8,542 bases of DNA. It comes from a virus. Taxonomy: Duplodnaviria > Heunggongvirae > Uroviricota > Caudoviricetes. The notes under the pieces were generated by a model. It had not been told where the DNA came from. It saw only the letters and a list, made by a program, of their open reading frames with translations, and ran no database searches. This document shows positions 1,462 through 8,106 of the stretch, piece by piece (the first letter of the stretch is position 1; the number at the start of each line of letters is the position of its first letter). The position numbers and the translations under genes are program-made. Where the stretch lies: IMG/VR virus record IMGVR_UViG_2541047699_000003. One strand, given 5' to 3'.

Positions 1462-1989
1462 ATGCAGCATTTGATAAATATAACGGCAGGTAATCCAAAA
1501 ACGGTTGAACAATATCAATTGACAAAGGACTTTGATGTTGTCTGGTTTTTTTCAGAAGATGGTAAGAACTGGTACGAAGAACAAAAGTATTTTGCTGATG
1601 ACACGATAAAAATAGCGTACGACAAAGATAATATTATCCGCTATGTGGAAAAGGATGTGACAGCTATCAGACCGGATGGATTAAGTGTGGTTGAAGTGGC
1701 GGATATTACTGCTAATCGGCGGGCGGACATTTCAGGGGGCTGGATGTTTAAGGACGGCAAAGTGATTAAACGCATTTATACGGCAGAGGAATTGCAGCAG
1801 CAGGCAGAAAATCGGAAAGCCAGACTTCTTGCAGATGCTGAATCCGTGATTTTGCCGCTGGAGCGCGCGGTCAGACTGAACATGGCAACAGATGAGGAGC
1901 GTAGCCGACTGGATGCATGGGAGCGTTACAGCGTTCTGGTCAGTCGTGTGGATCCTGCAAATCCTGAATGGCCGGAAATGCCGCAATAA
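1462..1989 (+). CDS. G: Tail fibre assembly chaperone (Tfa, P2 gpG-like)
   Basis: 175 aa, same length as P2 gpG as I recall it. N-terminus [22 protein letters not shown] and C-terminus ...[14 protein letters not shown] are characteristic of enterobacterial Tfa proteins. Start sits 3 nt after the fibre stop, consistent with translational coupling. Confidence 0.88.
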
Positions 1990-2023
1990 GTTGTATGAGC
2001 TCTGGTGTGAGCTTACATATCTA

Positions 2024-2065
2024 TGGCACAGAGTAAAGACTAATCTGACAGTCCGCTCTGTGCCA
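2024..2065. repeat. Perfect 10-bp inverted repeat (TGGCACAGAG / CTCTGTGCCA) with a 22-nt spacer, 35 nt downstream of the G stop
   Basis: Read directly: 2024-2033 tggcacagag and 2056-2065 ctctgtgcca are exact reverse complements. Followed by AAAAAC on the + strand, so not a canonical intrinsic terminator in either direction. Confidence 0.6.
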
Positions 2066-2131
2066 AAAACGGACATGTCAAAGCGCAGAGTGAATGGCTA
2101 AGTCTAGCTCATTAGAAATGTTCGCTTCATG

Positions 2132-2173
2132 AAAATGGCTGCAGCAAGGATCTATCTCACTGCGGCCTCTTTA
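2132..2173 (-). terminator. Putative intrinsic terminator for the minus-strand cargo gene, possibly weakly bidirectional
   Basis: Stem 2137-2144 (ggctgcag) pairs with 2160-2167 (ctgcggcc): 8 bp with one G-U, 15-nt loop. On the minus-strand transcript the stem is followed by AUUUUC (complement of 2131-2136), about 27 nt downstream of the cargo stop at 2194. On the + strand it is followed by a weaker UCUUU. Confidence 0.45.
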
Positions 2174-2193
2174 CAATAACGAAATTTTGCGAG

Positions 2194-2949
2194 CTATTCC
2201 TTGGCCTCTTTATTTTTCTCGCCATCGCCAATGTAAAGAAGATAATCGTTTAAGGATATCCTTCCGGAGGGGCCGGTCCATGTTATCCATCCGTTCTCAC
2301 GAAGATTAAATAATGCTTCCATGAACTCATTATCGTTAAAAGAATGATCCTCTGAGAACAGAATGTTCATTTTTCTCAATAGTTCTTCCACTTTAATCTT
2401 TTCATATCGCCTTATCAGACTTAGTGCTTTACGACGCATTAAGATTGTAGGTACTGCTTGTGAACGAATGGTTTTTTGTATTCCACTATCAAGAACTTTC
2501 TTGATCTTACTCTCTAACTCTTTGATTTTAGTTTCATTATCTCCATTGGACTTAAGCTTTTCATCAACGATGCAAATAATTTCCTGACTAATGCTGTTCT
2601 TGAGGTTGTTTATTTTTTCTTCATTGTTGAGAATCTCATCAGAGCTTCCTGCATGGGGTTTTTTCCATATGTGCTGACGCATATCCGTTACCGTATCTCT
2701 CATCATAGAGAATGTATCTGAATATAACTTGTCAAATATTTTTTCCAGTCGTTCGACACTTGCCTGGATGTCTTTTGCTGCTTTAGTTGTCTCTTTAGAA
2801 GCCTCATTCGACATTTTATAAAAAACAAAAGAAAGCCAAATAGCCCCAATGGCGAGTACTAATGAGGCTATTGTGGCAATAAAACCTATTATTGTTATTG
2901 CTGTATCTAATGTACCTGCTGCATCTGTGACTACTGTTTCTGCTGCCAT
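2194..2949 (-). CDS. Hypothetical membrane-anchored protein, 251 aa; cargo gene at the P2 Z/fun-equivalent locus, candidate anti-phage / abortive-infection or lysogenic-conversion protein
   Basis: Intact 251-codon ORF opposite to all flanking tail genes. ATG at 2949 is preceded by GAGGA (2957-2953) with a 3-nt spacer. Residues ~17-44 (AITIIGFIATIASLVLAIGAIWLSFVFY, nt ~2818-2901) form a 28-residue hydrophobic segment; the rest is K/E-rich, helical-looking and soluble. AT-rich relative to neighbours: my counts on 60-nt samples give 24/60 and 20/60 G+C inside the gene versus 38/60 in the sheath gene. Function is inference from genomic context only. Confidence 0.75.
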   Translation of the reverse strand: MAAETVVTDAAGTLDTAITIIGFIATIASLVLAIGAIWLSFVFYKMSNEASKETTKAAKDIQASVERLEKIFDKLYSDTFSMMRDTVTDMRQHIWKKPHAGSSDEILNNEEKINNLKNSISQEIICIVDEKLKSNGDNETKIKELESKIKKVLDSGIQKTIRSQAVPTILMRRKALSLIRRYEKIKVEELLRKMNILFSEDHSFNDNEFMEALFNLRENGWITWTGPSGRISLNDYLLYIGDGEKNKEAKE

Positions 2950-3110
2950 ATATCCTCAATATTTAACCATACAGGGTAGCGTGTTTTAACCGCGGGGAAG
3001 TCGGGGTGGTGACACCCTAGCCTTACCCCGATTCCAGAGTATTTATTTATCATACCATTGAAACTATTTAATTTTATCGAAAATTTTGTCAGAGCGTGAC
3101 TGAAAAGTCT
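2950..3110 (-). promoter_or_regulatory. Probable promoter / 5' leader region for the cargo gene
   Basis: Non-coding, very AT-rich block (3040-3100) directly upstream of the minus-strand start. -35/-10 elements could not be placed confidently by eye (a CTGACA-like hexamer in the reverse complement of ~3086-3091 is one possibility). Confidence 0.3.
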
Positions 3111-3336
3111 TCAGCACGTCAAGCATATCGTCGCCGTTCAATTAACACTGAGCCTTTTCTTAGAGGGGTGGGCTGCGCAGTTGCGAGGTTATGCCCCAGT
3201 TCCTGGTTCCTCACTACATTCTAATTAAGCCGGCCAACTAAATGTCCGCTTTTCGCTCAAAGCAGACTGTCAGATTTGATAGCGTTTGGGCTAGGTAAAT
3301 TGTCAGTTGAAAAATGAGTGAGTACAAATCAGGACG

Positions 3337-3363
3337 GGCGGGCGAGTTGCCCGCCTTTTCTTT
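3337..3363 (+). terminator. Rho-independent terminator (+ strand) immediately upstream of the FI promoter
   Basis: GGCGGGC (3337-3343), loop GAGTT (3344-3348), GCCCGCC (3349-3355): 7-bp GC-only stem followed by TTTTCTTT (3356-3363). The minus-strand version lacks a U-tract, so it is oriented for + strand transcripts. Confidence 0.7.
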
Positions 3364-3364
3364 A

Positions 3365-3445
3365 ATCTGTTGTTTCATCCACTGACCAGTCAGGTCAAAT
3401 AGCGTCTTATGCACTGCCCAACAGAAAATAGTTGCACCCATTAAC
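3365..3445 (+). promoter_or_regulatory. Putative Ogr-dependent late promoter (PF-equivalent) for the FI-FII-E-T-U operon
   Basis: Positionally equivalent to the P2 PF late promoter. Contains the dyad CTGAC-CA-GTCAG (3382-3393) roughly 70-80 nt upstream of the FI ATG. No exact TGT-N12-ACA match was found, hence low confidence. Confidence 0.35.
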
Positions 3446-3460
3446 CACGGAGTTAAACGG

Positions 3461-4651
3461 ATGAGTGACTATCATCACGGCGTGCAGGTGCTGGAGATTA
3501 ACGACGGCACCCGCGTCATTTCCACCGTATCCACTGCCATTGTCGGCATGGTCTGCACGGCCAGCGATGCGGATGCGGAAACCTTTCCTCTCAATAAACC
3601 TGTACTGATTACCAATGTGCAGAGCGCAATTGCAAAGGCCGGTAAAAAAGGCACGCTGGCGGCGTCGTTGCAGGCCATCGCTGACCAGTCAAAACCGGTC
3701 ACCGTTGTCGTGCGCGTGGAAGACGGCACCGGTGATGACGAGGAAACGAAACTCGCGCAGACTGTTTCCAATATCATCGGCACCACCGACGAAAACGGTC
3801 AGTACACCGGACTGAAAGCCCTGATGGGGGCTGAGTCGGTTACCGGCGTTAAACCGCGCATTCTCGGCGTACCGGGACTGGACACCAAAGAGGTCGCCGT
3901 CGCACTGGCATCGGTATGCCAGGAACTGAATGCCTTCGGGTATATCAGCGCATGGGGTTGTAAAACCATTTCCGAGGTGAAAGCCTACCGCCAGAATTTC
4001 AGCCAGCGTGAGCTGATGGTTATCTGGCCGGATTTCCTCGCATGGGATACGGTTACCAGTACCACCGCCACCGCGTATGCCACCGCTCGTGCGCTGGGTC
4101 TGCGCGCTAAAATCGACCAGGAGCAGGGCTGGCATAAAACGCTGTCCAACGTCGGGGTGAACGGTGTTACCGGCATCAGTGCATCCGTCTTCTGGGATTT
4201 GCAGAAGCCAGGCACTGATGCTGACCTGCTGAACGAGGCAGGCGTCACAACGCTGGTTCGCCGCGACGGTTTTCGTTTCTGGGGTAACCGTACCTGCTCT
4301 GATGACCCGCTGTTCCTCTTTGAAAGCTACACACGCACCGCGCAGGTACTGGCCGACACGATGGCTGAGGCGCACATGTGGGCTATTGATAAGCCCATCA
4401 CCGCAACGCTGATTCGCGACATCGTTGACGGCATCAATGCCAAATTCCGTGAACTGAAAAACAACGGTTATATCGTGGATGGCACATGCTGGTTCAGCGA
4501 AGAATCCAACGATGCGGAAACCCTCAAGGCCGGAAAACTGTATATCGACTACGACTATACCCCGGTGCCTCCTCTCGAAAACCTGACCCTGCGCCAGCGT
4601 ATTACTTCCAGATACCTGGCAAGTCTGGTCACTTCGGTTAACAGCAATTAA
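3461..4651 (+). CDS. FI: Contractile tail sheath protein (P2 gpFI-like)
   Basis: 396 aa, the length I recall for P2 gpFI. N-terminus MSDYHHGVQVLEINDGTRVISTVSTAIVGMVCTASDADAETFPLNKPVLITNVQ matches my memory of the P2 sheath protein. GGAG RBS at 3448-3451. Confidence 0.95.
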   Translation: MSDYHHGVQVLEINDGTRVISTVSTAIVGMVCTASDADAETFPLNKPVLITNVQSAIAKAGKKGTLAASLQAIADQSKPVTVVVRVEDGTGDDEETKLAQTVSNIIGTTDENGQYTGLKALMGAESVTGVKPRILGVPGLDTKEVAVALASVCQELNAFGYISAWGCKTISEVKAYRQNFSQRELMVIWPDFLAWDTVTSTTATAYATARALGLRAKIDQEQGWHKTLSNVGVNGVTGISASVFWDLQKPGTDADLLNEAGVTTLVRRDGFRFWGNRTCSDDPLFLFESYTRTAQVLADTMAEAHMWAIDKPITATLIRDIVDGINAKFRELKNNGYIVDGTCWFSEESNDAETLKAGKLYIDYDYTPVPPLENLTLRQRITSRYLASLVTSVNSN

Positions 4652-4663
4652 GGAGCCTGACCG

Positions 4664-5182
4664 ATGGCAATGCCGCGCAAACTCAAGTTAATGAACGTCT
4701 TTCTGAACGGCTACAGCTATCAGGGCGTTGCAAAGTCCGTCACGCTGCCAAAACTGACCCGTAAGCTCGAAAACTATCGAGGTGCGGGGATGAACGGCAG
4801 CGCACCGGTAGACCTCGGCCTTGATGACGATGCGCTGTCAATGGAGTGGTCGCTCGGGGGCTTCCCGGATTCGGTTATCTGGGAGCTTTACGCCGCAACC
4901 GGCGTGGATGCCGTGCCGATTCGTTTTGCTGGCTCTTACCAGCGCGACGATACCGGCGAAACGGTGGCCGTCGAGGTGGTCATGCGTGGACGTCAGAAAG
5001 AAATCGACACCGGCGAGGGTAAACAGGGAGAAGACACCGAGTCGAAAATCTCCGTGGTCTGCACCTATTTCCGGCTGACGATGGACGGTAAGGAGCTGGT
5101 CGAAATCGACACCATCAACATGATTGAGAAGGTGAACGGCGTCGACCGGCTGGAGCAACACCGCCGCAATATCGGCCTGTGA
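4664..5182 (+). CDS. FII: Tail tube protein (P2 gpFII-like)
   Basis: 172 aa, immediately after the sheath gene with AAGGAG RBS at 4651-4656. Sequence MAMPRKLKLMNVFLNGYSYQGVAKSVTLPKL... is typical of Peduovirus tube proteins; sheath-tube order conserved. Confidence 0.95.
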   Translation: MAMPRKLKLMNVFLNGYSYQGVAKSVTLPKLTRKLENYRGAGMNGSAPVDLGLDDDALSMEWSLGGFPDSVIWELYAATGVDAVPIRFAGSYQRDDTGETVAVEVVMRGRQKEIDTGEGKQGEDTESKISVVCTYFRLTMDGKELVEIDTINMIEKVNGVDRLEQHRRNIGL

Positions 5183-5238: not shown

Positions 5239-5514
5239 ATGAACAAAGAAAATGTGATTACCCTGGACAATCCGGTCAAGCGTGGTGAGCAGGTTATCGA
5301 ACAGGTCACGCTGATGAAACCTAATGCCGGGACGCTGCGCGGTGTCAGTCTGGCTGCGGTCGCAAACTCCGAAGTCGATGCACTGATTAAGGTGCTGCCG
5401 CGCATGACGGCACCGATGCTGACCGAGCAGGAGGTCGCCGCGCTGGAACTGCCTGACCTTGTGGCGCTGGCCGGTAAGGTGGTCGGTTTTTTGTCTCCGA
5501 ACTCGGTGCAGTGA
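5239..5514 (+). CDS. E: Tail assembly chaperone gpE (zero-frame product)
   Basis: 91 aa ORF between the tube and tape measure genes, the conserved position of the tape-measure chaperone. Ends just after a T6G slippery run. Confidence 0.88.
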   Translation: MNKENVITLDNPVKRGEQVIEQVTLMKPNAGTLRGVSLAAVANSEVDALIKVLPRMTAPMLTEQEVAALELPDLVALAGKVVGFLSPNSVQ

Positions 5515-5666
5515 CGTTTCCGAAAAATCTGTCGGTCGATGACCTGATGGCAGATGTGGCAGTGATATTTCACTGGCCGCCATCAGAACTGTATCCCATG
5601 AGCCTGACCGAACTCATCACATGGCGCGAAAAGGCGCTCCGGCGAAGCGGAAGCACGAATGAGTAA
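5239..5666 (+). CDS. E+E': gpE+E' fusion chaperone made by -1 programmed ribosomal frameshift (join 5239..5490, 5490..5666)
   Basis: Slippery run GGTTTTTTG at 5485-5493. Slipping back 1 nt after the TTT codon at 5488-5490 opens a frame that runs 58 codons to TAA at 5664-5666. 84 + 58 = 142 aa, the size I recall for P2 gpE+E'. The E' stop overlaps the T start (ATGAGTAA, 5659-5666). Confidence 0.8.
5485..5493 (+). other. -1 programmed ribosomal frameshift slippery site (G GTT TTT TG)
   Basis: T6 run followed by G in the last codons of E; the -1 frame is open from here to 5666. Analogous to the P2 E/E' and lambda G/GT frameshifts. Confidence 0.75.
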
Positions 5667-8106
5667 CAATGTAAAATTACAGGTATTGCTCAGGGCTGTT
5701 GACCAGGCATCCCGCCCGTTTAAATCCATCCGCACAGCGAGTAAGTCGCTGTCGGGGGATATCCGGGAAACACAAAAATCACTGCGCGAGCTGAACGGTC
5801 ACGCATCCCGTATTGAGGGATTCCGCAAGACCAGTGCACAGCTCGCCGTGACTGGTCATGCACTTGAAAAGGCACGGCAGGAGGCCGAAGCCCTTGCCAC
5901 ACAGTTTAAAAACACCGAACGTCCGACCCGTGCTCAGGCGAAAGTGCTGGAATCCGCAAAGCGTGCGGCGGAGGACTTACAGGCGAAATATAACCGCCTG
6001 ACGGATTCCGTTAAGCGCCAGCAGCGGGAACTGGCCGCTGTGGGAATTAATACCCGCAATCTTGCACATGATGAGCAGGGACTGAAAAACCGTATCAGTG
6101 AAACCACCGCACAGCTTAACCGGCAGCGTGACGCGCTGGCGCGTGTCAGTGCGCAACAGGCAAAACTTAATGCAGTAAAACAGCGTTATCAGGCCGGAAA
6201 GGAACTGGCCGGAAATATGGCCTCAGTGGGCGCTGCCGGTGTGGGGATTGCGGCGGCGGGAACGATGGCCGGAGTTAAGTTGCTGATGCCCGGTTATGAG
6301 TTTGCGCAGAAAAACTCAGAATTGCAGGCCGTGCTGGGTGTGGCAAAAGACTCCGCCGAAATGACCGCACTACGCAAACAGGCGCGCCAGCTCGGCGACA
6401 ATACCGCCGCCTCGGCGGATGATGCGGCCGGTGCACAGATAATCATCGCGAAAGCGGGTGGGGATGTTGATGCCATTCAGGCGGCAACGCCGGTCACGCT
6501 GAATATGGCGCTGGCGAACCGCCGCACGATGGAAGAAAACGCCGCCCTGCTGATGGGGATGAAATCCGCCTTTCAGCTTTCAAACGATAAGGTCGCTCAT
6601 ATCGGGGATGTTCTCTCCATGACGATGAACAAAACCGCCGCCGATTTTGACGGCATGAGCGATGCGCTGACCTATGCCGCACCTGTGGCAAAAAATGCCG
6701 GTGTCAGCATTGAAGAAACCGCCGCAATGGTCGGGGCGCTGCATGATGCAAAAATCACAGGCTCAATGGCGGGGACGGGAAGCCGTGCCGTGTTAAGCCG
6801 CCTGCAGGCACCGACGGGAAAAGCATGGGATGCACTCAAAGAGCTTGGAGTGAAAACCTCAGACAGCAAGGGAAACACCCGGCCAATATTTACCATTCTG
6901 AAAGAAATGCAGGCCAGTTTTGAGAAAAACCGGCTCGGTACTGCCCAGCAGGCTGAATACATGAAAACCATTTTCGGGGAGGAGGCCAGCTCAGCCGCCG
7001 CCGTGCTGATGACTGCCGCCTCAACCGGAAAGCTGGACAAACTGACCGCTGCGTTTAAAGCCTCGGACGGGAAGACCTCAGAGCTGGTAAATATTATGCA
7101 GGACAATCTCGGCGGTGACTTTAAGGAGTTTCAGTCCGCTTATGAGGCGGTGGGGACTGACCTGTTTGACCAGCAGGAAGGCGCACTGCGTAAGCTCACG
7201 CAGACGGCCACAAAGTATGTGTTAAAACTCGACGGCTGGATACAGAAAAACAAATCACTGGCGTCAACCATCGGCATCATTGCCGGCGGTGCACTGGTGC
7301 TGACTGGCATCATCGGTGCCATTGGCCTTGTAGCTTGGCCGGTTATCACCGGCATCAATGCCATTATCGCGGCAGCAGGCGCAATGGGGGCAATCTTCAC
7401 GACGGTTGGTAGTGCCGTTATGACGGCCATCGGTGCGATTAGCTGGCCGGTTGTGGCCGTGGTGGCCGCTATTGTCGCCGGGGCGTTACTTATCCGTAAA
7501 TACTGGGAGCCTGTCAGCGCATTCTTTGGCGGTGTGGTGGAAGGGCTGAAAGCGGCATTTGCGCCGGTGGGGGAACTGTTCACGCCACTTAAGCCGCTGT
7601 TTGACTGGCTGGGTGAAAAGTTACAGGCCGCGTGGCAGTGGTTTAAAAACCTGATTGCCCCGGTTAAAGCCACCCAGGACACACTGAACCGTTGCCGTGA
7701 CACGGGCGTCATGTTCGGGCAGGCACTGGCTGACGCGCTGATGCTGCCGCTTAATGCGTTCAAAAAACTGCGCAGTGGTATTGACTGGGTACTGGAAAAA
7801 CTCGGTGTTATCAACAAAGAGTCAGACACACTTGACCAGACCGCCGCCAGAACTCAAGCTGCCACGTATGGCAGCGGTGGTTATATTCCGGCGACCAGCT
7901 CTTATGCAGGTTATCAGGCTTATCAGCCGGTCACGGCACCGGCTGGCCGCTCTTATGTGGACCAGAGTAAAAACGAATATCACATCAGCCTGACGGGTGG
8001 TACTGCGCCGGGGACACAGCTCGACCGCCAGTTACAGGATGCGCTCGAAAAATACGAGCGGGATAAACGTGCGCGCGCCCGTGCCAGCATGATGCATGAC
8101 GGTTAA
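5659..8106 (+). CDS. T: Tail tape measure protein (P2 gpT-like)
   Basis: 815 aa. N-terminal half is helical and rich in Q/R/A/K/E; then a long Gly/Ala/Ile-rich hydrophobic block (IGIIAGGALVLTGIIGAIGLVAWPVITGINAIIAAAGAMGAIFTTVGSAVMTAIGAISWPVVAVVAAIVAGALLI, ~nt 7260-7500). Located after E/E'. Start overlaps the E' stop. Confidence 0.93.
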   Translation: MSNNVKLQVLLRAVDQASRPFKSIRTASKSLSGDIRETQKSLRELNGHASRIEGFRKTSAQLAVTGHALEKARQEAEALATQFKNTERPTRAQAKVLESAKRAAEDLQAKYNRLTDSVKRQQRELAAVGINTRNLAHDEQGLKNRISETTAQLNRQRDALARVSAQQAKLNAVKQRYQAGKELAGNMASVGAAGVGIAAAGTMAGVKLLMPGYEFAQKNSELQAVLGVAKDSAEMTALRKQARQLGDNTAASADDAAGAQIIIAKAGGDVDAIQAATPVTLNMALANRRTMEENAALLMGMKSAFQLSNDKVAHIGDVLSMTMNKTAADFDGMSDALTYAAPVAKNAGVSIEETAAMVGALHDAKITGSMAGTGSRAVLSRLQAPTGKAWDALKELGVKTSDSKGNTRPIFTILKEMQASFEKNRLGTAQQAEYMKTIFGEEASSAAAVLMTAASTGKLDKLTAAFKASDGKTSELVNIMQDNLGGDFKEFQSAYEAVGTDLFDQQEGALRKLTQTATKYVLKLDGWIQKNKSLASTIGIIAGGALVLTGIIGAIGLVAWPVITGINAIIAAAGAMGAIFTTVGSAVMTAIGAISWPVVAVVAAIVAGALLIRKYWEPVSAFFGGVVEGLKAAFAPVGELFTPLKPLFDWLGEKLQAAWQWFKNLIAPVKATQDTLNRCRDTGVMFGQALADALMLPLNAFKKLRSGIDWVLEKLGVINKESDTLDQTAARTQAATYGSGGYIPATSSYAGYQAYQPVTAPAGRSYVDQSKNEYHISLTGGTAPGTQLDRQLQDALEKYERDKRARARASMMHDG

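Follow-up and report, generated by a model that had tools for sequence, protein, structure and literature searches.

Analysis of an 8,542-nucleotide stretch of viral DNA (IMG/VR record IMGVR_UViG_2541047699_000003; hereafter the window), which belongs to a P2-like prophage, revealed a discrete unit at positions 1992-3326, between the tail genes G and FI, which is bounded by terminal inverted repeats of ~85 nt (type B on the left, type A on the right) with TGTA...TACA termini. This island is probably a resident copy of a family of non-autonomous cargo transposons, whose insertion became fixed at the G-FI site and whose cargo has been swapped in place. The Z-region locus and its flanking inverted repeats were already known from GenBank annotation; added to that picture here are the 7-bp target duplications, the two end types, and the copies located far outside P2. 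The wider question is that of the arrival and turnover of defence genes in phage and satellite hotspots.

Boundaries of the unit between G and FI

The interval and its flanks comprise the following features.

1462..1989, plus strand: G, tail-fibre assembly (Pfam Caudo_TAP, E = 1.3e-34), the terminal gene of the late V operon per the P2 annotation
1985..1991: left target-site duplication copy, AATAAGT, abutting the TGTA terminus
1992..2076: type B arm (left terminal inverted repeat), beginning TGTATGAGCTC and pairing with 3242-3327
2024..2065: perfect hairpin inside the type-B arm (arms 2024-2033 / 2056-2065)
2077..3241: exchangeable cargo of 1165 bp, delimited by homology breakpoints and cargo variety
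3242..3326: type A arm (right terminal inverted repeat), ending GAGTGAGTACA, assigned from pairing score and arm alignment
3327..3333: right target-site duplication copy, AATCAGG, 5/7 identical to the left copy
3336..3356, plus strand: V-operon intrinsic terminator, with a stem of 9 pairs (7 G-C) and a TTTCTTT tail
3364..3393, plus strand: homologue of the pF activator-binding site, with TGTTTCATCCACTGACCA at 3371-3388, from alignment to P2 17555-17583 and a pattern match
3461..4651, plus strand: FI, tail sheath (Pfam Phage_sheath_1, Phage_sheath_1C, Gp18_domIII_N), which opens the F operon

The gap between the G stop codon (1989) and the FI start (3461) covers 1990-3460, or 1471 nt, and its sole substantial ORF lies on the minus strand at 2194-2949 (756 nt including the stop, 251 aa). 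A preliminary description of this DNA had put the spacing at ~1.47 kb with 756 bp coding and had called the stretch an AT-rich island, and both statements are borne out by calculation: the stretch 2077-3241 has a GC content of 0.396 and the cargo ORF one of 0.370 (GC3 0.345), as compared with 0.558, 0.572 and 0.562 for FI, FII and T (GC3 0.61-0.72). Values lower than those of FI-T are also seen in G (0.455, with 0.37-0.38 in its 5' half) and in H (0.482), so that the left compositional edge is soft and the right edge sharper. The insertion had been placed within the tail operon; this is not the case, since in the P2 annotation G closes the V operon and pF drives FI onward, which puts the island between two late operons. 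No known RNA family was found in 1900-3500 at E <= 1.

The actual bounds of the unit are given by a long inverted repeat, 1991-2076 / 3242-3327, which was absent from the preliminary description and which reaches a local score of 55, against 19.8 ± 3.8 (maximum 38) for shuffled sequences. The left arm aligns with the type-B arms of nine other contexts, and P2 itself carries a type A arm. The arms match the "left/right inverted repeat" annotated in GenBank AJ512677 and AJ512683, with window positions 1960-2073/2081 and 3241-3490 aligning at 89-98% to the repeat-bearing ends of these records. The arms hold hairpins and repeated CTGACRG motifs. Arm-like termini read TGTATTAGCTCAGA... The 7-bp target duplication that frames the arms (AATAAGT / AATCAGG) is decayed in the window; a left flank of the AATAAGT type is present in 27 of 51 Z-region loci, and the centre of the left copy is the G stop codon itself (TAA, 1987-1989).

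Two structures which had been taken for the edges of the island do exist, but neither marks an edge. The perfect inverted repeat at 2024-2065 (10-nt arms, 100% complementary, 22 nt apart; fold -24.6 kcal/mol, z = -5.2) is internal to the left arm, which is conserved whatever the cargo. Its pairing is retained in 85.8% of cells across 19 type-B arms, as compared with 23-56% in the slid-partner control, and only two cells in those arms are compensatory. Structural selection on this hairpin was considered and set aside, as RNAalifold did not recover it and the explicit count amounts to good conservation with weak covariation. The GC-stem terminator on the right (fold -20.1 kcal/mol, z = -3.5) starts 3 nt past the right duplication copy, with two bases (3334-3335) between them. 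In loci with an empty site (L008, L011, L024 and L047, together with the Yersinia phages P37 and GMS190) the terminator stands directly 3' of the G stop, and it is therefore the V-operon terminator of the phage, which belongs to the backbone and lies outside the insert. As the exact late-promoter motif TGT-N12-ACA is absent, the pF site was located via its P2 homology instead; alignment to P2 17626-17628 would place the start of F-operon transcription at ~3435-3437.

Cargo turnover at the G-FI site

The Z-region of P2 is described as a site of horizontally acquired genes (PMC3091744; PMC9122126), and a P2 hotspot within the late genes is on record (10.64898/2026.02.27.708500). P2 carries the Abi gene fun(Z) in this region, Fun/Z being a broad Abi system (PMC8594841). 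Peduovirus P22H4 and phage 9W match the interval of the window at 98% identity. The interval is not conserved in all relatives, the window's cargo being found in only 3 of 66 matching phage records and in 7 of 1713 E. coli genomes with shared flanks. Homology breaks at 2062-2081 and 3239-3253 in ~50 loci, and 51 G-FI loci contain 31 cargo types, placed between common arms and common flanking 7-mers. The earlier proposal of a horizontally exchanged accessory-gene cassette, whose defined edges would reveal where cassettes are swapped among relatives, is thus upheld. Occupants of the site include an OLD-like ATPase-Toprim, PARIS AriA/B, a reverse transcriptase, TIR, Shedu, RelA/SpoT, FRG and DUF5677 proteins; the G-FI gap is a hotspot that mostly holds anti-phage genes. 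One cargo was found with G alleles either 80% or 97% identical to the G of the window. Coupling between the inner ends of the two arms (the innermost 14 nt of each) was not detected (9.23 vs 8.96 ± 0.20; 1068 of 10000 permutations equalled or exceeded the observed value). Cargo common to the G-FI site and other contexts is limited to a single pair of elements (L070/L147, 83% at the amino acid level) and one 112-nt match.

Several of these traits would suit an ordinary moron, that is, a single illegitimate acquisition which was later shuffled via the flanking phage genes, the arms being merely conserved intergenic DNA. The cargo is AT-rich, consists of one ORF on the opposite strand and is unlinked to the G allele, and the conserved G and FI flanks could support recombination. 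The breakpoints, however, are concentrated where the arms meet the cargo rather than inside G or FI, and further evidence against this explanation comes from outside the P2 group (see below).

In the empty sites, the G stop is joined to the equivalent of 3334 with 2 nt between, and a single AATAAAT is present. Such loci make up 4 of ~80 and all derive from somewhat diverged phages, so that the pre-insertion sequence is a reconstruction and not an observation in a sister genome. The empty site also occurs in the isolated phages P37 and GMS190, which indicates that a phage is viable without the insert.

Long inverted repeats beside tail-fibre genes also bring to mind an invertible segment of the kind found beside the tail-fibre genes of Mu and P1, with the repeats acting as invertase or recombination sites that flip the cargo. 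E. coli FEA3, in which an element sits behind another tail-fibre-assembly gene in the opposite orientation, might be read as such a reversed block. This copy, however, possesses its own perfect 7-bp duplication and therefore represents an independent insertion rather than an inversion. Furthermore, no cargo type was found in both orientations among the 51 G-FI loci, the type-B arm is the one beside G wherever it was typed (the window, WPhi and the left arms of ~17 other cargo types), and no invertase gene was seen. We therefore consider inversion to be extremely improbable.

The cargo gene of the window and its putative signals are as follows.

2129..2167, minus strand: predicted terminator-like hairpin (~2137-2167) with the U-rich tail AUUUUCAU, downstream of the cargo ORF
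2194..2949, minus strand: cargo gene, 251 aa, predicted to comprise, from the N- to the C-terminus, a transmembrane helix, a juxtamembrane helix that is invariant, a helical linker and a winged helix
2953..2957, minus strand: Shine-Dalgarno-like GAGGA, 3 nt ahead of the cargo ATG

The architecture of the cargo protein was derived from an alignment, a structure model and a fold search. The AF2 model is mediocre (pLDDT 67.7, pTM 0.32), the C-terminus being modelled as a winged helix. The protein falls in PHROG 36054 (function unknown) and has 351 homologues, which are encoded by solitary genes in opposite orientation in four kinds of prophage and which share an invariant N-terminal module. Residues R67, E69, D73, Y76, D78, R91, H93 and W95 of the protein are invariant. 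No Pfam, NCBIfam or PADLOC family was matched (the best hit in PADLOC-DB 2.0.0 being PDC-M49B, E = 0.42), nor was there similarity to P2 Fun(Z) (BLASTP E = 8.7). The 251-aa ORF of a Pantoea element was considered as a relative and rejected as unrelated. The example of fun(Z) and of the site's further occupants makes the protein a tentative candidate for a role in phage exclusion or abortive infection that guards the lysogen.

The cassette had also been credited with expression and insulation signals of its own, of which the expression signals are not supported by the data. Promoter-like matches are at chance level, with four in the region vs an expected 3.6 ± 2.0, one of them a sigma-70-like match at 3092-3063 on the minus strand; a terminator-like hairpin is predicted after the ORF. 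The minus-strand fold of 2100-2200 has an energy of -31.4 kcal/mol (z = -3.2), and 2130-2198 is conserved (75%) beside the Pectobacterium homologue.

Arm-bounded elements beyond P2

Outside the G-FI site, 52 convergent arm pairs were identified, in every case a type-A arm with a type-B arm. Of these pairs, 30 have a perfect 7-bp duplication and nine a match at 6/7 positions; duplication register controls gave 35-38/45 vs 8-19/45. The remaining 13 pairs match at <= 5/7 positions, and some of these are decayed or mis-paired, the copies beside ldtA having a 6-bp repeat (GCTATC) in a shifted register. The 20 distinct duplications conform to the consensus NNTNANN (P ~7e-17). Near-identical whole elements are present at unrelated sites with different duplications, at identities of 99.2%, 98.7%, 95.2% and 89.6%.

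The arm core was found in 23 species of several orders, as well as in stretches of viral (31) and metagenome (100 reported) sequence; besides Enterobacterales, the family was encountered in Acinetobacter, in Neptunicella and in a MAG of Pseudomonadales. The elements lie after gpA, after P4-type integrases, in an island beside ldtA and in a CDI toxin array. Cargo differs between copies at these sites too: in the ldtA island the cargo is SEC-C in one strain but DUF6602 in a second, and two elements at a common site (L185 and L149) have partly different cargo. The 6.3-kb Pantoea copy carries LysR, MFS and dehydrogenase genes, which shows that non-defensive cargo exists in the family. Landing on the stop codon of the upstream gene was considered as a general rule and dismissed, as it applies to only 2 of 32 elements; the TNA centre is therefore a sequence preference, of which the TAA of G is one instance.

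These observations weigh heavily against the ordinary moron. Conserved intergenic DNA would not be expected to occur as inverted A+B pairs, framed by 7-bp duplications, at over 20 unrelated sites without P2 genes in the vicinity, nor as whole elements which are 95-99% identical within unrelated flanks. Together, the arm pairs and the near-identical elements largely refute that explanation, which we judge to be highly unlikely.

It could also be argued that the arms are substrates of a tyrosine or serine recombinase, the unit being a cassette of conservative site-specific recombination and the 7-bp repeats a shared crossover core. A 7-bp overlap is typical of tyrosine recombinases, the two kinds of end are reminiscent of attL and attR, the hairpins and CTGACRG motifs described above are present in the arms, some elements adjoin integrase genes, and the repeat has a constrained centre, T-N-A. 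A paper by Nilsson et al. from 2004 reportedly points in its title to site-specific recombination. Such a reaction requires matching cores in both partners, however, and the 7-mers vary between sites at five of seven positions (20 sequences), even near-identical copies having different 7-mers. Furthermore, no recombinase gene is consistently linked, and the TGT...ACA termini are as in DDE transposons. A site-specific cassette appears, on balance, unlikely.

No transposase was found inside 42 non-redundant elements, no partner was identified outside them, and no protein recurs across the cargos. Since the cognate transposase was not found, transposition is read from its footprints alone. Candidates for an autonomous copy were rejected, since no transposase is encoded by the 6.3-kb Pantoea element, by the element next to gpA or by other cargos of a single ORF. 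Some loci do contain an insertion sequence of the IS30 family (HTH_38 + rve; the ORF of L106), which the window lacks. This insertion sequence was rejected as the mobiliser: it is a secondary insertion within an arm hairpin, and duplications of the IS30 type measure 2-3 bp, as opposed to the 7 bp of the present family. A literature search on the end sequences and on such a transposon returned nothing relevant.

Origin of the element and likeness to known systems

The preferred explanation, a resident copy of a cargo-transposon family, may be set out as follows. The family plan consists of a 7-bp duplication, a TGTA end of ~85 nt, the cargo, a different inverted end of ~85 nt, and the second 7-bp duplication. 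An ancestor shared by many P2-like phages would have received one copy at NN-TAA-NN, on the stop codon of G, at a point between G and the V-operon terminator and upstream of pF. As the left duplicate restores the stop codon of G, this insertion would have disrupted no essential function. The site has remained fixed afterwards, the cargo having been replaced many times, and the simplest route for such swaps would be homologous recombination with other family members, within the conserved ends. Mobilisation was presumably effected in trans by a DDE (rve-type) transposase. The cargo gene, on the strand opposite to the late genes, is presumably under its own promoter.

It is plausible, if somewhat short of probable, that the arms mark out a widespread family of cargo transposons without a transposase, one which current work on defence hotspots has not recognised. 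If so, the family would both seed and feed hotspots, namely those of P2-like phages (after G and gpA), P4-type integrases, islands and CDI arrays, and would offer a tangible carrier for the fast exchange of defence genes, with a trans-acting transposase implied. If hotspot occupants sit in a transposon shell, the question of hotspot turnover becomes testable, and the conserved ends could be used as a search key for candidate anti-phage genes such as the 251-aa membrane/winged-helix family. For annotation, the gain consists of exact bounds (1992-3326) and of the assignment of the adjacent terminator and pF to the phage backbone.

The closest counterpart is the Z-region of P2 (AJ512677-AJ512683), with which the window shares the position between G and FI, the same left and right annotated repeats, and AT-rich, variable, non-essential content. 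Those records annotate an AT-rich accessory ORF as a "putative lysogenic conversion protein", and such an ORF is present here too; the window differs in its cargo gene, which is unrelated to Fun(Z). Morons, as conceived by Hendrix and Juhala, resemble the unit in being an extra gene between phage genes, of deviant composition and on the opposite strand, which lytic growth does not require and which turns up again in unrelated prophages. They are defined, however, by their own promoter and terminator and have no set mobility apparatus, whereas the unit in the window has terminal repeats and target duplications.

Non-autonomous cargo transposons are known in the form of mobile insertion cassettes and MITE-like elements. 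Terminal repeats, duplications, the lack of a transposase, passengers, and copies at unrelated sites are shared with these; the ends described here differ in being long (~85 nt) and of two types, the duplication is a 7-bp NNTNANN, cargo replacement takes place in situ, and the elements have no known parent insertion sequence. Tn552, Tn7 and Mu possess an rve-type DDE transposase, TGT...ACA termini, and ends of ~90-150 bp with internal repeats which are distinct on the left and right. Their duplications measure 5 bp in Tn7 and Mu and 6-7 bp in Tn552. The likeness to these three would lie in the layout of the ends and not in an established similarity of sequence. The elements here are without tnsABC, MuAB or Tn552 transposase genes, and in no copy was tnsA, tnsB or tnsC present; their 7-bp duplication is unlike that of Tn7 and Mu.

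Integron cassettes, too, are promoter-poor single-gene cassettes on a fixed platform with imperfect palindromes at their boundaries. They rely on one attC, an integrase and attI, in contrast to the two inverted ends of ~85 nt, the target duplications and the many insertion sites seen here; the window has no adjacent integrase. Finally, the accessory-gene hotspots already published (PMC9122126; 10.64898/2026.02.27.708500) are alike in their rapid swapping and in a mostly defensive cargo which is unlinked to the core genes. Arm-bounded elements directly after gpA and after P4-type integrases occupy precisely such published hotspot positions, with the difference that the cargo described here is enclosed in a transposon-like shell.

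The element between G and FI and its edges

The window comes from a P2-like (Peduovirus) prophage and covers its tail region, where genes were called from ORFs and Pfam matches:

124-1458: H, C-terminal part
1462-1989: G (Pfam Caudo_TAP)
3461-4651: FI, sheath
4664-5182: FII, tube
Downstream set of the window: E/E' and T

The E and E' frames correspond to ORFs 5239-5514 and 5511-5666, which P2 annotation joins by a -1 frameshift. Along its full length, the G-FI interval shows 98.1% identity to that of Peduovirus P22H4 and Escherichia phage 9W, and the 2 kb that include it (1700-3700) are 97.8% identical to an E. coli O177:H21 prophage.

The gap measures 1471 nt and holds a single ORF of 756 nt (2194-2949, minus strand), across which GC content is 0.34-0.38 in 200-nt windows, as the preliminary description of an AT-rich island had it. 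The GC content of the cargo (2077-3241) is 0.396 and that of its ORF 0.370 (GC3 0.345), the values for FI, FII and T being 0.558, 0.572 and 0.562. The left compositional edge is soft because G (0.455), above all its 5' half (1401-1700; 0.37-0.38, as AT-rich as the island), is also low in GC. Identity to other loci is 75-97% for G and near 93% throughout for FI; the tail-fibre module (124-1989) has a mosaic make-up of its own and shows no linkage to the cargo.

Two nested sets of edges emerged when 80 related IMG/VR loci were compared to the window. In approximately 50 loci, homology ends at 2062-2081 (mode 2074-2076) and restarts at 3239-3253 (mode 3241-3245), with 0.84-4.1 kb of unrelated DNA between these breakpoints. 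Four loci represent empty sites, in which the G stop codon (1989) is joined to position 3334 with 2 nt between them, such that a single AATAAAT is followed by AC and the terminator as in the window. The isolated Yersinia phages P37 and GMS190 possess the identical empty junction, and the whole block is therefore dispensable. A long inverted repeat (1991-2076 / 3242-3327) delimits the block and scores 55, compared to 19.8 ± 3.8 (maximum 38) for shuffled sequences. The element is laid out as follows:

1985-1991: left copy of the target-site duplication, AATAAGT, centred on the TAA stop codon of G
1992-3326: element, 1335 bp
1992-2076: type-B arm
2077-3241: cargo
3242-3326: type-A arm
3327-3333: right copy of the duplication, AATCAGG, a 5/7 match to the left copy

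The two structures previously read as the edges of the cassette are both present, namely a perfect 10-bp inverted repeat (2024-2033 / 2056-2065; fold z = -5.2 against shuffles) and a GC-rich terminator (3336-3356; z = -3.5). Neither, however, is an edge: the hairpin (2024-2065) sits within the left arm (1991-2076), and the terminator lies just beyond the right end. Since it directly follows G in the empty-site phages, the latter is the V-operon terminator. Beyond it, 3364-3393 aligns with the annotated P2 pF activator site, and homology to P2 places the F-operon start at ~3435-3437. With the V terminator and then the pF site beyond its right end, the island is therefore located between two late operons, and not within one operon as had been proposed. 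The original observation stands and its interpretation holds in spirit, while its edges and operon context required revision.

A minus-strand ORF of 67 aa (3238-3441) matches PHROG 11095 (E = 2.6e-49), and is recorded as 'hypothetical protein' in several phage records. It runs across the right arm, V-operon terminator and pF promoter and is probably an artefact of annotation, held open by conserved regulatory DNA.

A probable transposon family beyond P2

A degenerate 22-nt core pattern of the arms matched 23 species, comprising many Enterobacterales together with Acinetobacter, Neptunicella and a Pseudomonadales MAG. Most of these loci are without a nearby G or FI homologue, and conservation spans the full arm of ~85-95 nt. 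Convergent arm pairs are the rule. Arms occur directly 3' of a P2-type replication gene A and of P4-type integrases (Pfam), in an island adjoining ldtA (where one E. coli strain has SEC-C and another DUF6602), inside a CDI/polymorphic-toxin array, and, in E. coli FEA3 (NZ_CM132924), at a prophage end behind a DUF4376 tail-fibre-assembly gene.

Alignment of 27 arms resolved two types, A and B, all with the outer end TGTA(T/C)T, each element possessing one A and one B arm. The 7 nt outside both termini are direct repeats, perfect in FEA3, Pantoea, Kosakonia, Acinetobacter, a MAG and Klebsiella; as a register control, 35-38/45 matches were obtained in the correct register versus 8-19/45 elsewhere. 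Searches for the outer terminus in the viral and metagenome collections contributed a further ~130 loci. Across all loci, the 52 convergent pairs, ranging from 731 bp to 7.5 kb, are without exception A+B (27 BA, 25 AB); 30 of them have perfect 7-bp repeats, and nine have repeats that agree at 6/7. Of the 20 distinct perfect repeats, 18 have T at the third position and 19 have A at the fifth (P about 7e-17), giving NN-T-N-A-NN as the consensus. Copies of whole elements at sites with unrelated flanks and different repeats match each other at 99.2%, 98.7%, 95.2% and 89.6% identity, and another pair shares a common site with partly different cargo. Comparison of 91 cargo ORFs revealed no recurrent protein, and no transposase was detected in the cargos checked. 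The arms are read as transposon ends, and the elements that they bound bear the footprints of a non-autonomous transposon family also subject to in-situ cargo replacement.

Several individual elements deserve description. The FEA3 element (L098:4225-5092) is complete at 862 bp, with perfect TATCATT duplications and two small ORFs, and its type-A arm adjoins the DUF4376 gene, the opposite orientation to that of the window. Within the orphan-module array of CDI/polymorphic toxins in E. coli CEC15 (L124:7001-9116) lies a 2.1-kb element with ORFs of 157 and 293 aa, a 99.2%-identical copy of which (L231) is found in metagenome data at an unrelated site, flanked by another duplication. Two 6.7-kb elements at different sites (L171:4447-11154 and L175:6598-13308) are 98.7% identical and bear multi-gene cargo (ORFs of 597, 422 and 401 aa); as the largest near-identical pair, they represent a good substrate for a mobility study. 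Finally, an IS30-family IS (386-aa ORF, HTH_38 + rve; end TGTGAGTTCAAYGGGTCGATGCAAC) interrupts the arm at L106:250-1535, in L101, L105, L115 and L123, and at the right junction of the Citrobacter cassette (L085-L087, ~5650-5701). In several genera it is inserted at the same position, the inner-hairpin loop after ...GCTTTGAGC, which suggests that this IS targets the inner hairpin of the arm.

Cargo turnover at the G-FI site

The 51 G-FI loci with both arms contain 31 cargo types (GC 0.32-0.45) between arms that are 82-100% identical, and none of these cargos was present in both orientations. The homology breakpoints bear out the earlier proposal of a horizontally exchanged cassette with defined edges. 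One cargo is paired with G alleles either 80% or 97% identical to that of the window. The flanks were found in 1713 of 5426 complete E. coli genomes, only 7 of which carry the window's cargo; other occupants annotated in E. coli genomes include Shedu, an HNH endonuclease and DUF5677. A scan of 34 proteins, with at least one ORF from each of 29 other cargo types, returned matches to OLD-like ATPase-Toprim, PARIS AriA/AriB, reverse transcriptase, TIR and Shedu, as well as RelA/SpoT, FRG, SMEK and DUF3800. The G-FI site is a genuine defence-gene hotspot.

The 7-mer pair of the window and its close variants together predominate among the 51 loci regardless of cargo, with 27 carrying the exact pair; the few odd left 7-mers are probably due to fuzzy matching of the terminus. 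That different cargos share a 7-mer pair points to a single ancestral insertion followed by cargo replacement. Reference P2 (L099, NC_001895, 15400-17800) possesses the right type-A arm, the terminator and pF, and its left side, where the left arm is absent, consists of different DNA that includes the annotated 'V operon terminator' and the 528-aa fun(Z). P2 itself is a carrier of a one-armed, rearranged version of the element.

The cargo protein and the known Z-region

The only match of the 251-aa cargo protein is PHROG 36054, for which no function is assigned; no family match was obtained in Pfam, NCBIfam or PADLOC, and there is no similarity to Fun(Z). Its 351 homologues are all unnamed. 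Alignment of 60 of these revealed an invariant N-terminal module, namely a hydrophobic helix (~residues 17-44) and a conserved run (R67, L68, E69, F72, D73, L75, Y76, D78, T79, F80, M82, M83, T86, V87, D89, M90, R91, H93 and W95), followed by a variable helical linker and C-terminus. The AF2 model is modest (pLDDT 67.7); in it, residues 6-95 form a single long helix and the C-terminus folds as a winged helix (pLDDT about 80). Fold searches returned winged-helix domains only, all at E > 0.01, and a profile search of PDB sequences returned the RPA32 C-terminal winged helix (E = 0.0016). A Shine-Dalgarno-like GAGGA precedes the ATG, and a predicted hairpin with a U-rich tail, conserved beside the Pectobacterium homologue, lies 3' of the stop codon. 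Promoter-like matches in the island do not exceed chance.

In each of the four settings in which homologues were located, the gene stands alone: in Citrobacter it lies at one end of a P2-like prophage, in Serratia it separates the terminase genes of a prophage, in Pectobacterium it neighbours a filamentous prophage, and in Alcaligenes it neighbours another filamentous prophage. The Citrobacter nucleotide match (89%; window 2055/2059-3257) extends past the cargo into the inner ~17-20 nt of both arms and lies directly against an IS30-like end. In Citrobacter koseri, ~40 nt from the cargo homologue, lies a 45-nt match (L085/L086:6923-6967) to what we take to be the 3' part of tRNA-Pro; ARAGORN detected no complete tRNA at this locus. 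The fragment looks like an att-site duplicate, which would place the Citrobacter cassette between att and the first prophage gene. From its location and architecture, our best guess is that the cargo protein has a membrane-anchored exclusion or abortive-infection role.

The Z-region locus as such is already known. Its repeats were reportedly described by Nilsson et al. in 2004; in the searchable literature, that paper aside, no cargo-transposon reading of the occupant was found. Two GenBank records of a 'proviral Z-region' (AJ512677 and AJ512683), to both ends of which the window aligns, carry annotations of left and right inverted repeats and of a putative lysogenic conversion protein. The Z-region has been described as a site of horizontally acquired genes (PMC3091744), P2-like phages have 'two variable loci ... 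anti-phage genes' according to Rousset et al. (PMC9122126), a defence hotspot among the P2 late genes is listed in a 2026 preprint (10.64898/2026.02.27.708500), and fun(Z), P2's own occupant, is a broad abortive-infection gene (PMC8594841). The present analysis adds the reading of the hotspot occupant as a cargo transposon, bounded by TIRs and target duplications, whose family extends far outside P2.
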